23,083 bases of DNA from UHGV virus genome UHGV-2162644; one strand, 5' to 3'. Each line of letters opens with the position of its first letter. Positions within the stretch are counted from its first letter, which is position 1. This document shows positions 3,001 to 12,000 of the stretch, piece by piece. Source of the stretch: a virus. The position numbers are program-made.

Positions 3001-6000
3001 AGACTCTCATAAAGAATGATTTCTGGTGCCGAACGCTCTCCTTCAGCCCCAACAAACCCCGGCACTATGAACGTTACCTGCAGCGTATGAATGAAAGGAG
3101 GAAGGAATGGGGAATTCTGTGACACCAGAGGTGGAGGTGCTGAGCAAGATGATTCGACAGTACTTCAGTCAGGAACAATCTGAAGAGAAAACCATACAGG
3201 CCCTGAACCATCTCCGCTGCGTACTCCATGAGATCAGCCCCTTTGCTCAAGAACCAGTGGACTGTGTGCTGTGGGTAAAAGCGGATGAAATTGTCGCTAA
3301 CGATTATAATCCCAATGTCATGGCCCCAAGCGAAAAAAAATTACTGAAACAATCTCTGGAAAAAGACGGTTTTACTCAACCAATTGTTGTTTCGGAAGAA
3401 ACAAGCCATTACCTGGTGGTGGATGGTTTTCATAGGCAGTTACTAGGTAGAAGAACAGTTACTGGAAAACGCCTGAAAGGCTGGCTACCAGTAACCTGTA
3501 TTAATCCAGACCGAAAGGGACAAACCTCACGTATTGCCGCGACTATCCGACATAACAGAGCCAGGGGGAAACACCAGATAACCTCAATGTCTGATATTGT
3601 CAGAGATCTTTCACGTCTTGGCTGGACTGATGAACGTATCGGAACAGAACTGGGGATGGACCAGGATGAAGTTCTGAGGTTAAAGCAGATTAGCGGGCTA
3701 ACGGAGTTATTTCAGCAGGCAGATTTCAGCCCTGCATGGACTGTTACATAAAGTTAGGTTAGGCCTGTGGAGCCGGGGAATCGGAATTAAACATCTTCCC
3801 TCCCCGGTAAATACAAATAAGGGCTGAACATCATCCCGACTACCTCAGATCACTTAATAATATATCAAGATTATTTTGCGCATAAATGCTATTCGCCATT
3901 ACTGTTGCTGCTTCTGGCGACTTTCCAAGAGCAATAAATATATCCTTAAGGCTGATTGGAATTGATGAACCATGCGGATCGCGCCACTCACCGCAAATTC
4001 TGTGAGTTTCATCACAAAGCCTGAACGCATCCCAACCTCCATATTGACCAAAAATTATGTCCATTGACTCTATTTCTGCGGGCGATAACTCCCCCAGCTC
4101 ATCAACAGAAGAAAATGTACGCCACATTTCAACCTTATGATCCGCTACATCAGATATCCATGATTCCCACGGACTGTACTCGTTTTCGCTTCCATCCTTA
4201 ACCAAAGAATATGTCTGCGATAAAACGGGTCCTTTGTTCATAGAGAAATAATGATCACCACTAATGGGAAAACCATACAACTCCATTGCTTTGCGGTCAG
4301 AGAGATACATCAGCTTAATGAAACGCATAGATCCGCCATGTTTTTTCAGCAAATACGCTGCCATTTACGCAACTTTTTCTTCATTAAACATAAATCGGCT
4401 CTCTGTCTCACATGAAATACTCTTTCTGACTATATGTTAATAGCTCCGGTTATTACAGGTTAATGTGTGTTTATTTCTTAATCAGCCCCGCACTTCCGTA
4501 CGGGGCCATTTCTGTTAATCCACTCCCACTTTTTTGTTGTACTCGCGGTTAAAGCGATCCACGGCAACCTTCATATCCCGCTCTACCGATTTCACCATCG
4601 CCGCCTGCTGCGCCAGACTGAGAGAACTGTCGGCATAAATGGCATCGCGCTGTTTGCGCAAATCCTTCAGTCTCTTCCGGGTATCCTGCATAAGCCCGTT
4701 CATCAACAATTTTCCGTTGTTCTCGTCAATGAACGCCGTTCTTTCTGCACCGGTCAGACTCTTCAGCTCTGCGTGATACTGCGCAACCTCTGTCATCCGG
4801 TCGTACATCTTCTGCTGGTCTGCATACGGCATCACCTCACCCGAAATTTTCCCCAGGAAGGGCACCTGCTGTTCCGGTATATCAATACCATTCAGCGATT
4901 TCACCGCCGCATCCGTGGTTTTGGAAATGAAGCGCCCTGTCCCTCCGGAGATATAGTCAATCCAGAATTTCAGCGATTCCGGTGTGATATCCACCGCGCC
5001 GGGACGATACTGGCTGCCACCTGAGAACGCATTCAGCCAGGATGCAAACGCCTTGTACGCTTCTGGCGTTGAACGTCTTCCCAGCTGGCTGTCAGGTTTT
5101 GGTGTACCAAACGGCATGTTCTCCTGGTAAATCTGCGCCCCCATGAAGTTTTCGTTCATGGCAAGATTCGCAAACGGACGCAGAATTGTCGGTGCTGCAT
5201 TTTTCAGCAATGCCCCGGACAGCGTTTCCGACGTCTCACTGCCAATCGGGCTGAATGCCCCCAGGATACCACCGACAACATTACCGGCAGCACGGGACGC
5301 CGTCAGGTCACCAGCAGCCACACCTTCAGAGGTATGCCCGAGCAGGAAGAAAACGTTGTACCCGTAAGGCAGAGGAATACTCCAGTACTCTCCGGCCCTG
5401 CCCCCGAACATCGATTTCATAATGACGAGGTTACGCTCTTTCACATGATACGGCACCTTGTCGTACCAGTTAACCCCGTCATCATCCTCACCCGCCACAC
5501 TGCGGTTAAGCGAGCCAAGCAGATAACCCGCTCCCACAGCTGCAAGCGCGATTTTCTGCGGTACATTGAGATTCTTCCAGCGAAGGCGCTCCAGTAACGG
5601 CCCGTCGCCATTAAGATGTCCGAGCGTTCTCACCAGGTTTGCGGTCCCCTGAATGCTGGCGTTGGCAAACATATACAGCGAGTTCATCAGCGCTCCCTGC
5701 TCACCACGACGGTTAAAGTTCACCGTCATGTTTTTGGCAAGAGATGCCGCCTGCTGGCGTGACAAACCGGCATCACGGGCGTGTTTATAGGCAGAAAGAC
5801 GCAGAGCGTTTTCAACCGCGCCGTTGGCATCCTCGACCAGGTTCAGGAACGAATGCCATGCACCGATACTCTGGCCTTTCCATCCTCCCTTCGCCAGCGA
5901 TACAAGGCGATCCATTTCCTTCTGCTGGCCTTCAAGGTCACCCATGTTAAACCAGCCGGTTTTACCTCCGTCCTCAACAAACTCTTTCCACACTTTCTGC

Positions 6001-9000: not shown

Positions 9001-12000
9001 ACATCATAACGACCAAAATAATTATCCAGTGAATGGAACCATTCGTGGGCCAGCGCCCCCGGTCCGTTACCTTTTGTCAGGTTGATTGCCACCTCACCCG
9101 GCTCATAGTGTGCCGCCGCCTTACCCTTACCACGGGCACCAAAAGCAAGCCCAAGACGACCGTTCAGAGAAAGCGCTTTTGTCGGCACGTTCAGCACATC
9201 AGCCAGGTCATGCAGCGAGTCATAAGCCCGGTTCAAATCAGCCTGACGACGCGGACCTTCCACATAATTACCAAACTGCACACCACGAAAACCAAACGCA
9301 TCACTGAACTGCTCCGGCGAAACATCCCCCTTGCGGCGTTCTGGTCCGGTACGATCGCGGTTGGTGGCGTTACGCTGCTCCTCACGCGAAATCTCCCGCA
9401 TCTCCTTCACATGACGAACAAGCTCATCACGATGTGAATCAATGTACTTACGCGCATCACTGGCTGACTTAAAGCCACCTCTCACCCGCATTTTGTTTTT
9501 GCCATAAGCGATAAAAATATCGCCACTGCGGGTATTCCGGTAAACGTCAAAGCGGATTTTGTCATCCGGTGACGGTGCCGTTTTTTCATCTCCTTTCGCC
9601 TGTGACTTTTCCTCCAGCTCTGCAAACCAGACTTTCGCCTTTGTCAGTAATTCATCCCTGCTTTCCGAGAAAAAGAGGTTAGTCCCCTTATTGTCCTTAT
9701 TGCGCAGTGAATAAAGTTTCTGTGGCGGATCGTAACGCTTCCCTCCTGCCGCCTGATACACACCCGATACCACCCGATAAGCAGAAGCCTTGTCCATCTG
9801 TGAGGGTGGCAGAGTGCGTAACAGTTGCCAGGTATCCGCGTAACGGGAGGGCATTCTGCCTTCCATCCATTCTGCGAGGCGTTTCGCGCTGACCGTTCCG
9901 TTCAGCATTTCCGATACACTGTGTCGTACTTTTTTTACGCTCTCCCCCCAGCCAGCCGTATTGTGTTTCGTCTTCGCCGGAATATCGCTACGATACAGCG
10001 CTATCATTGCCAGGGTGTCAGCATCAGCCCCTTCGCTCGCCAGTTTTGCGTAGTCCGGTTTCGGGAACAGTTTGCTCAGCGGCTGCGTGGCATAATCCCT
10101 GTCTTCCAGCGTTTTACCCAGTGTTTCAGCAAGCTGTGCATAACGGTGTTTGGCTGCCCCTTTAATTTCCTCGCCAAAGTCTTCAATTTTTTTGCCCCTG
10201 ACTTCACCTCCGCGCACAGTAGCTTCCCTGTCAGTAGAGACAGTTGTTTCAGATTCAGGTGCGATTGTCTCAGGCTGCGGGATGTCACGATTTCCTCCGG
10301 CCTGTCGACGTACTTCTGCCTGCTGTGCGAGCTCAGGCAATGAGTTACGAACAGTTCGGGGAAGCTGATCAGGCTGAGGCATACGGACATTGTGTGTAAT
10401 GTCCGGAGCCGGTAGACCTTCACGTACCAGCGCTGTGGCGTTCTGCTCATCCGGTGACGGCAGACCACGACGAACTGTTTCGCCCTCCAGTATTTCCCCC
10501 TGGCGACCAGCGGCGTTTTCCGGTGCCGGAGCACGTCCTTTCTGGAAACTCTGGCCCTTAACCTCACCGGTTGTGGTAAAACGACCACCACGTCCGGCCT
10601 GATTCTCATCCGGCGTACGCGCCACCTCTCCCGGTAACGGATATCCCTGTCCGGGATGAATATCGCCGGGGGCGGGCAGACGCGGACGCTCAGTTAACTC
10701 CTGTGCTGTCGGACCGGCATCACCTTCAGCCATCTGGGAATGCACCAGTTCTTCCGCCGTCGGCGCGTTGCCACGGGCAAGACGGGCCTGCACTTCTGTA
10801 TCATCCCCCGTAAAACCACGGAATCGCGGGTCACGCATGAACGCGGGCTGTTCCATCGGATCAGCATCAGTAATACGCTCTCCGTCAGCCAGAGTGTTAA
10901 TGGTCTCCGTTGCCACATCTTCAGAGAACGCAGGATTATCCATTTCAACGGCATACTGATTCTCGCCTTTCTTCACTACGGACGGTTTCAGGCCGGTGGC
11001 GCTGGCATTGCGGAAAACGTCGCTCCCCAGAGCACTTTTTTCATCCGTGAAATAACGGTTGTCCGGACGCACCTTTTCAATGCGTTCTGCTGGTCTGGAC
11101 GCACCACTCCCGTTAATTTCAATACGAACTTCATCCGGATCGCGGAACCGCACCGTCGGGTAAATACTCCCGTCGCCATCATCCGCATTTTCCGGCTGTG
11201 GCTGTGCCTCCGGTCTGGCCTCCTGCTGAGGGCGAAGCACATCACGGATAGCCTGTAACTGCTGCTCTTCAGTATCAGTACGCCCTTCCTTCAGGCTGAG
11301 TTTTCGGTATTCCTCAAGCAGTTCAGGGCGCGGCTTCGCCTTCAGCTCATCCATTACCGCCTGTCGCTTCGCCTGTTCATCCAGTTCATTCAACAGCTGG
11401 CTGGCGGCTTCCCGGCGATGAACGGCAGACGTGTCTTCCTCATGTGCCATATCCGCATCAGCATACTGTTCCAGAAGCTGCTCGCGATTCATCCCCTGCA
11501 TGGATTCACGATGCTGTGCCACCGGATCAACCGGTTCGGGTTGCGGAGCCGATTCGTCCTGAGGAACGCTTTCAGCCTCACGCATGGCGGTTTCTTCTGC
11601 GGCATGACGTCTGCCACGATATCCGGCAACCGCACCGAATGGTGCCCCCATCGCAGCACCAAGGGCTGCACCTTCGATCGTTGCGTCAGCCACGCCCTCC
11701 CCCGGTGACACATCCATTCCGGCGGTCTCACGCAATGCCGTGTTTTCCTGATAGCGTGAATATCAGGAAATAGTATTAACGGGAATGGTGAATTACTGCG
11801 CGTAATTCTGTTTCAGACCACGGATAAACTCAGATGCAGAGGCCGCACTATCATCTCTGGCCTGTTCCCCCCTGGCCTTTTGAATACGGAGAAAATTCGC
11901 ATACCCGTTCTCCAGCAATTTCTGATTCTGAGGCTCCAGCATTTCTGGCTGACGGGAAGCAACTTCTCTGGCGAATGCCTGCTTATCCGGATCATCACCC

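Follow-up and report, generated by a model that had tools for sequence, protein, structure and literature searches.

A giant late phage protein with two predicted zincin domains, and its truncated allele in virus genome UHGV-2162644

What does a 7.2-kb open reading frame (ORF) in the late region of a prophage encode, and is the copy at hand still a working one? The question is raised by a 23,083-nucleotide (nt) stretch of UHGV virus genome UHGV-2162644 (hereafter, the window), in which an initial annotation made from the sequence alone had described a single ORF of 2406 amino acids (aa) with two HExxH motifs. ORF calling and translation recovered this ORF on the minus strand, open throughout, with HEWFH at residues 897–901 and HEIIHH at residues 1164–1169; the earliest possible start is a TTG, assigned mechanically. 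Based on the composition of the protein itself, 0.05 HExxH motifs are expected by chance, and the probability of two or more is ~0.0014. We consider it probable (about 0.7) that members of this family are polyvalent proteins with several effectors, carried inside the capsid and ejected from it, of which the ORF in the window is an N-terminally truncated and probably non-functional allele.

A giant late gene with a 5' deletion

Along its entire length (100%), the DNA of the ORF is ~95% identical to 186 phage records, including Shiga toxin (Stx) 1- and Stx2-converting phages, 933W, P13374, phi191, TL-2011c, and Shigella Stx phages. The encoded protein is a truncated orthologue, lacking its N-terminus, of the giant late protein of short-tailed temperate phages of the 933W/Sp5/phi24B/P13374 type (Sepvirinae). 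The orthologues Sp5 ORF80, 933W L0134, phi24B gp47, and P13374 gp78 share its last position in the late operon, after genes for proteins of 218, 148, 83, and 421 aa, and the same Pfam domains, whereas the window copy alone lacks the first ~390 codons and the native start. Against the PHROG 616 profile (2793 positions) it aligns to positions 388–2793 only, and full-length orthologues include P13374 gp78 (2806 aa as annotated) and that of the closely related prophage of E. coli UPEC-245U (2792 aa).

Comparison with the P13374 locus using blastn revealed that position ~11762 of the window adjoins both 10802 and 11974 of that locus, with 1171 bp missing from the window. Lost with this segment, according to the alignment, were a GC-rich hairpin followed by a T-run (terminator-like), a GGAG ribosome-binding site (RBS), the ATG of MAYSEEQ, and ~390 codons; the same frame is closed by a TGA 9 codons before the TTG. 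The ORF owes its apparent 5' boundary to this deletion. In P13374, the start annotated for gp78 (MPGHCAGFFYGVC...) overlaps the GC-rich hairpin and T-run (10801–10845 of the locus), an apparent intrinsic terminator that separates the 421-aa gene from the giant gene and is deleted from the window. The true start of gp78 is likely the downstream ATG of MAYSEEQ, giving 2793 aa as reported for Sp5.

The initial annotation had the protein begin with a Gly/Ala hydrophobic segment similar to the glycine zipper that ends the 83-aa protein. The similarity holds, as residues 20–38 form a GxxxGxxxG segment resembling the C-terminal zipper of the 83-aa protein, itself a match to Pfam Gly-zipper_YMGG, but the segment is not a true protein start. 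Because the deletion removed the N-terminal codons, the apparent start is internal in the native protein, where the segment lies at about residues 410–435. More distant orthologues likewise have such a zipper, with basic residues after it, 350–430 residues from the N-terminus.

The missing N-terminal region is kept in 186/186 related phage records and is recognisable in Vibrio phage orthologues (~28% identity), and a Pfam scan of its 390 residues gave no match. A search of the rest of the window for the missing coding sequence, as would be seen in a split or translocated gene, returned chance matches only. The deletion junction was detected in none of 5426 complete E. coli genomes, though 425 of them carry the gene family. 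Around the truncated start we found no sigma-70-like promoter or convincing terminator, the counts of promoter-like and terminator-like signals being no higher than expected from shuffled sequence. The neighbouring late genes are all intact, as is the giant frame over the 7.2 kb downstream of the deletion. Given that the start signals and a universally kept N-terminal region are gone, the allele is most likely a loss-of-function one. Judged from sequence, the deletion most likely represents a recent event of this kind in an otherwise intact late operon, the allele is probably non-functional or translated only poorly, and the prophage probably cannot give rise to infectious particles, which would make it a defective and non-transmissible copy.

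Two predicted zincin domains in a polyvalent architecture

Profile searches assigned four Pfam families to the protein, and structure prediction modelled both HExxH regions as zincin folds. The order of parts is glycine zipper, acidic linker, LPD5, zincin 1 (with LPD1), zincin 2, MuF-C, and a C-terminal module of ~900 aa (hereafter, C-module) that includes LPD38 (Table 1). LPD5, LPD1, MuF_C, and LPD38 are all families of the polyvalent protein survey of Iyer, Burroughs, Anand, de Souza & Aravind 2017 (PMC5512222), in agreement with the likeness to polyvalent proteins suggested by the initial annotation. The MuF_C match scores 64.4 bits against a Pfam gathering threshold of 27.6, placing the region within the family. 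Polyvalent proteins are recognised by at least two unrelated domains, including enzymatic ones, and by a late or virion-gene context in a (pro)phage or a transfer context in a conjugative element. The window protein has the former in its four Pfam families and two predicted zincin folds, and the latter in its place as the last late-operon gene at the prophage end near ynfF. A third mark is entry into the host along with the DNA, and what is documented in this respect is virion association of orthologues or relatives. The stretch of ~500 low-complexity residues noted initially is indeed acidic and Pro-rich (D+E 15–22% and P up to 13% per 100 residues over residues ~40–550), and parts of it are conserved, only among close orthologues.

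Several other assignments were considered. A tape-measure protein was rejected, with no such match in Pfam or PHROGs and with related phages being short-tailed podophages; likewise no purely structural family was matched in these two databases. An AAA+ ATPase (COG1483) was rejected as well, given that the 2406 residues contain no Walker A motif ([AG]xxxxGK[ST]) and that Pfam and NCBIfam gave no ATPase family. P1 DarB-type proteins combine LPD36, an N6-adenine methyltransferase, and an SF2 helicase; Pfam and NCBIfam detected no methyltransferase or helicase, and a PHROG 'DarB-like' match is limited to residues 1967–2294, i.e., the LPD38 region. The Pfam scan of the 2406-aa protein matched no peptidase model, and searches of the whole protein and of the zincin 2 profile against Protein Data Bank (PDB) chain sequences gave chance-level matches only.

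For zincin 1, a homologue search with residues 820–1340 retrieved >400 proteins, many of them stand-alone proteins of 500–900 aa annotated as LPD5 plus LPD1. H897, E898, W899, H901, and D904 are invariant in 71 homologues (30–65% identity); the upstream strand motif AHYEP...INLTK..G.G.LAHEW and, within LPD1, E988, R992, and E995 are also invariant (58–71 homologues), while residues 905–970 form a poorly conserved insert. The AlphaFold2 (AF2) model has a zincin three-dimensional fold with HEWFH in helix 256–273, so that a conserved HExxH and downstream acidic candidate ligands occur together, as in zincins. The fold matches the Pro-Pro endopeptidases PPEP-2 and PPEP-3 (7.2 and 7.1, respectively), anthrax lethal factor (7.0), a Bacteroides zinc peptidase, M13 peptidases, and thermolysin. 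The NCBIfam family CLCA_X (NF041907) covers residues 795–1050 (E = 1.4e-44; profile positions 3–245 of 250), with a score of 152.4 bits against a curated cut-off of 260, indicating a homologue outside the curated subfamily. The original description of CLCA_X, from 2013, presents a zincin family that has HExxH and a conserved Asp and is borne by phages and plasmids (Lenart et al.; PMC3650047). Zincin 1 resembles it in the whole-profile alignment, the Asp following HExxH, and the phage/plasmid distribution, and differs in lying within a giant protein after LPD5 and in its score below the cut-off. In view of the fold matches and the CLCA_X coverage, LPD1 does not seem to be a separate domain but to supply the C-terminal helices of the zincin 1 peptidase domain as modelled.

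Stand-alone LPD5-zincin-LPD1 proteins of 500–574 aa were found in mobile-element contexts in Bacteroides and Gemmobacter caeni. The gene in the Bacteroides element (8001–9506 of its locus) adjoins RadC, and that of G. caeni (8001–9725 of its locus) lies near H-NS, a Tn7-like TniQ/TniB/transposase set, PcfJ, and a 1707-aa AAA_34/Helicase_C_4 protein.

Zincin 2 has no Pfam model. An exhaustive HMMER search with residues 1090–1345 against 1.84 billion cluster representatives (E ≤ 0.001) returned 390 families, nearly all of proteins of 1.5–6 kaa and a few of 160–370 aa; a Pfam scan of ten small stand-alone homologues gave no peptidase family. Among representatives of 50%-identity clusters, H1164 is present in 139/141 and E1165 and H1168 in 141/141, with a motif consensus of TLRHExLHxGL (141 aligned sequences). 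E1220, in the downstream helix QAEEV.A..AE, is invariant in 34/34 aligned sequences, so the domain has both the conserved HExxH and the downstream Glu typical of zincins. Its AF2 model adopts a zincin fold, with a predicted local distance difference test score (pLDDT) >88 for the first 140 residues, and matches lethal factor, Spartan/SprT, minigluzincins, M32, M13, and ArdC, as well as TTHA0227, jannalysin, Acel_2062, Wss1, and IrrE. Foldseek comparison with viral models (BFVD) gave other "large polyvalent protein" entries, a PolyVal ADP-ribosyltransferase protein, "internal virion protein D", and an N4-like vRNAP. In a profile–profile comparison of the two zincins, the HExxH helices and the preceding strand align at a probability of 3%, which is not significant, and the two are therefore not demonstrably paralogous by sequence.

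Both motifs thus lie in conserved rather than poorly conserved positions, and the zincin-type domains proposed initially are borne out by the models: each HExxH is supported as a conserved catalytic-type site in a predicted zincin fold, for which peptidase activity is predicted. The zincins are probably protein endopeptidases, because it is enzymes that cleave proteins, not wall peptidases, that the modelled folds resemble, and because the zincin 1 unit also occurs in conjugative-type elements. The MuF_C region (residues 1363–1452) contains no HExxH, and the published prediction for MuF-C is an RNase-like domain of the PBECR type rather than a metallopeptidase (PMC5512222). A phi24B preprint lists LPD5, LPD1, LPD38, and a "MuF-C metallopeptidase" for gp47 (bioRxiv 10.64898/2026.04.10.717836); in the window protein the HExxH domains, at residues ~795–1053 and ~1107–1300, are outside MuF_C.

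Table 1 Positions of the giant ORF, its predicted parts, and the upstream cassette in the window.
Feature	Position (nt)	Strand	Basis or remark
2406-codon ORF, 5'-truncated allele of ~2793-aa giant late gene	4515..11735	-	ORF list, translation
Remnant intergenic stretch with deletion junction at ~nt 11762	11736..11792	-	blastn and alignment against P13374
Gly/Ala glycine-zipper segment, aa 20-38, GAALGAAMGAPFGAVAG	11622..11678	-	
Acidic, Pro-rich, largely low-complexity linker, aa ~39-555	10071..11621	-	Composition per 100 residues
LPD5, aa 664-813	9297..9746	-	Pfam PF18799, E = 3.8e-45; within confident AF2 model
Predicted zincin domain 1, aa ~795-1053, CLCA_X-like	8577..9353	-	HEWFH at nt 9033-9047; LPD1 = aa 974-1053
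Predicted zincin domain 2, aa ~1107-1300	7836..8417	-	No Pfam model; HEIIHH at nt 8229-8246; E1220 likely third ligand
MuF_C, aa 1363-1452	7380..7649	-	Pfam PF18819, E = 1.2e-17
Conserved C-terminal module, aa ~1496-2406	4518..7250	-	Pfam LPD38; PHROGs 14770, 10691, 10089; tblastn
LPD38, aa 2089-2294	4854-5471	-	Pfam, E = 3e-47
421-aa gene, fourth of upstream cassette	11793-13058	-	Orthologue of essential Sp5 ORF79
83-aa glycine-zipper 'bacteriocin' gene, third of upstream cassette	13069-13320	-	Pfam Gly-zipper
148-aa gene, second of upstream cassette	13331-13777	-	
218-aa gene, first of upstream cassette in transcription order	13780-14436	-	Gly-rich C-terminus

The C-terminal module, its upstream cassette, and the surrounding genes

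A word-indexed homologue search with the C-module gave mostly gene fragments, so the architectures of relatives were taken from the representative search. Among 149 zincin 2 representatives, 29 also had zincin 1/LPD1, 26 MuF-C, 42 residues 1801–2088, and 19 LPD38. The order LPD5 - zincin 1/LPD1 - zincin 2 - MuF-C - C-module recurs among them, and the C-module, where present, ends within a few residues of the protein end. Using tblastn, residues 1456–2406 were found in common with Vibrio phages (41% identity, 95% coverage), and also in a Bacillus podophage, Ralstonia GP4-type phages, and Burkholderia phages Bcep22 and BcepIL02, whose gene is annotated "DarB-like antirestriction". The C-module also stands alone, as a 1026-aa protein matching residues 1509–2405 that is encoded by the last structural gene of a 57-kb viral contig.

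In a Halomonas elongata prophage the C-module is split between ORFs of 571 and 686 aa. The same locus has homologues of the 218-, 148-, 83-, and 421-aa proteins in the same order (E = 4e-23, 1e-9, 4e-11, and 1e-9, respectively) at 2626–5217, followed by ORFs of 450, 351, 571, and 686 aa. As read from these comparisons, the four small upstream genes and the C-module are a cassette conserved as far as Halomonas, and the parts N-terminal to the C-module vary between phages.

Within the window, the giant gene ends the late (structural) operon, and the prophage end adjoins ynfF and a truncated ynfG-like gene. Upstream of the giant gene are a tail-tip fibre gene, Lom, a Hok-like gene, and the four small genes. 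Downstream is a Panacea-domain gene, and the opposite strand carries IbrB-like, PAPS-reductase, and antirepressor genes. The Panacea-domain gene (3840–4364, minus strand), directly downstream of the giant gene, encodes a 174-aa SocA/Panacea antitoxin-domain protein (Pfam E = 2e-19) and has no obvious toxin partner adjoining it. At the prophage end, on the strand opposite to the late operon, are two genes that share a few codons (1896–3751, plus strand), one for an IbrA-like PAPS reductase (408 aa) and the other IbrB-like (214 aa). Two Rfam sRNA-Xcc1 (RF02221) matches, at 407–495 and 944–1029 on the plus strand (73 and 69 bits, gathering score 53), are each just upstream of an antA/antB antirepressor-like ORF (partial, 536–820; ~1070–1699), a layout reminiscent of antirepressors under the control of a small RNA, such as P1 c4/ant. 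A 433-aa gene with a YadA C-terminal domain (trimeric autotransporter, Eib-like) is located within the prophage at 20910–22211 (minus strand), and a low-GC stretch (~36%) follows it at 21500–23083.

Function of the giant protein and fate of the truncated allele

Sp5 ORF80 (ECs1242, 2793 aa) and ORF79 are essential for infectious particles (PMC5155283). Mass spectrometry detected phi24B gp47 (2811 aa) in abundance in virions, but the cryo-EM density does not show it, and an 83-aa "bacteriocin homologue" was detected in phi24B preparations and dismissed as a contaminant (bioRxiv 10.64898/2026.04.10.717836). JC1 gp69 (4515 aa), from a Bcep22-like phage, is virion-associated, with 51 unique peptides (PMC9144972). 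The detection of an orthologue and of a relative in virions fits the initial suggestion of a packaged protein.

Comparison with known systems points the same way, with clear differences. Like polyvalent proteins, the window protein has zincin-like metallopeptidases (MPTases; the commonest polyvalent domain), MuF-C/PBECR, LPD5/LPD1/LPD38, and a virion-gene context, and LPD38 is restricted to phage-type polyvalent proteins (PMC5512222). Unlike them, its orthologue is essential and so is more than optional cargo, and zincin 2 escapes Pfam MPTase-PolyVal and every other Pfam model. Bcep22 gp75, BcepIL02, and JC1 gp69 (4.5–4.6 kaa; Burkholderia/Ralstonia podophages) share the C-terminal ~800 aa (~27% identity over 80–85% of residues 1456–2406), the position at the end of the structural module, virion association, and portal, capsid, and head-closure proteins related to those of 933W; their own cargo, however, is a P1 DarB-type methyltransferase and helicase in place of LPD5, two zincins, and MuF-C. 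N4 vRNAP gp50 and the ejection proteins of T7 (gp14–16) and P22 (gp7/16/20) are likewise carried in a podophage head and pass into the cell, either as a very large protein or as several proteins, and N4 vRNAP carries zincin-like MPTase domains (PMC5512222). In contrast, the window protein has no RNA polymerase, transglycosylase, or detectable homology to them, and its ejection is a proposal.

Experiments, all on orthologues, have established virion association and essentiality only; the steps that follow are our proposal. The giant protein would be packaged inside the capsid via one or more conserved terminal modules, i.e., the C-module and probably the N-terminal ~400 residues, and would leave through the tail either before the DNA or together with it. 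An envelope conduit would be built or crossed with the help of the glycine-zipper and LPD38 parts of the protein and of the small zipper proteins. The two zincins would act as endopeptidases that cut the polyprotein into units or cleave host proteins early in infection, much as polyvalent MPTases have been proposed to autoprocess the polypeptide or attack host proteins (PMC5512222), and MuF-C would be a further effector.

Several points weigh against this interpretation. Injection, proteolytic activity, and an anti-defence effect are, for the giant-protein family, predictions that go beyond the experiments, and the essentiality of the Sp5 orthologue sits uneasily with an anti-defence role, as accessory anti-defence cargo is usually not essential. 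Neither zincin domain is at a curated family cut-off (CLCA_X 152 vs 260 bits; no Pfam peptidase). The hydrophobic segments of the giant protein are only weakly hydrophobic (Kyte–Doolittle ~1.2), and membrane insertion is therefore speculative. The truncated ORF still has an ATG as its codon 7 and, 10 nt before its TTG, an AGGA, so residual expression of the allele is possible. The deletion itself may be an assembly error, the source genome lying outside the collections searched. Moreover, the authors of the Sp5 study read the delta-ORF80 phenotype, in which heads filled with DNA are not bound by tail-fibre antibody, as a tail-assembly defect (PMC5155283), and such a phenotype is not expected from a pure cargo protein. 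These heads are normal, and a COG1483 ATPase match was noted for ORF80 in the same study (PMC5155283). Both observations would suit a tail-assembly or structural factor that uses ATP (AAA+-like) to build the short tail, instead of an internal, ejected protein. We regard such a factor as very improbable, given that the Walker A motif was not found, that Pfam, NCBIfam, and PHROGs gave no ATPase, tape-measure, or tail family, that phi24B gp47 is plentiful in virions without appearing in the resolved tail or capsid density, and that the C-module is joined to quite different N-terminal parts in other phages.

Podophage internal proteins with wall-degrading domains exist, such as T7 gp16 with its transglycosylase, which counts in favour of an ejection protein whose metallopeptidase digests peptidoglycan for a trans-periplasmic conduit. 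This is the mechanism put forward for gp47, as an encapsidated ejection protein, in the phi24B preprint (bioRxiv 10.64898/2026.04.10.717836). It is improbable in our view, since the preprint places the peptidase in MuF-C, the predicted RNase-like PBECR domain, whereas the HExxH domains are elsewhere, and the modelled folds match MtfA, Pro-Pro endopeptidases, lethal factor, Spartan, and M13/M32 rather than LAS, M23, or M15. In addition, stand-alone LPD5-zincin-LPD1 proteins occur in conjugative-type elements near RadC or near PcfJ and a helicase, and entry by conjugation requires no wall digestion by a cytoplasmic protein. As for the allele in the window, it could still be made from the TTG at 11735 or the codon-7 ATG and suffice, the N-terminal 390 residues being dispensable and the prophage fully functional. 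The intact 7.2-kb frame and neighbouring late genes, the AGGA, the likely read-through transcription now that the terminator-like hairpin is also deleted, and the existence of phages with a C-module-only homologue would all agree with this. We nonetheless think it unlikely: the N-terminal region is kept in every one of the 186 phage records and in all matching E. coli genomes, is still ~28% identical in the Vibrio phage orthologues, and has a counterpart of 330–430 residues ahead of the glycine zipper in all distant orthologues; the native RBS and ATG are lost, and the intact frame may simply reflect a recent deletion. A capsid-internal, ejected polyvalent protein with a probably non-functional copy in the window is thus the interpretation that we retain.

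More tentatively, the ~900-aa LPD38 module and the four small proteins may be the as yet undefined ejection apparatus of T=9 podophages of the 933W/GP4/Bcep22 type, to which interchangeable effectors are fused N-terminally and released by the zincins after injection. The cargo would then be the zincins and a PBECR RNase here, and a DarB-type methylase-helicase in Bcep22. If true, this would account for the essentiality of a 'polyvalent' protein.

Earlier publications already cover the protein family itself, its presence in virions, the fact that it is essential, and the domain families, which were defined in 2013 and 2017, and the field's existing proposals for the family are unchanged by the present analysis. 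What is added is the placement of two distinct predicted zincins, one without a Pfam model, the apparent inclusion of LPD1 in zincin 1, the five-gene cassette, and a private truncation, by which this prophage has a deletion in an essential late gene. Stx phages, which are short-tailed, spread Shiga toxin genes and devote ~14% of their genome to the giant protein. Locating its two predicted zincin domains outside MuF-C, and setting the conserved C-module apart from the variable N-terminal cargo, provides precise mutagenesis targets for the existing Sp5 complementation system.

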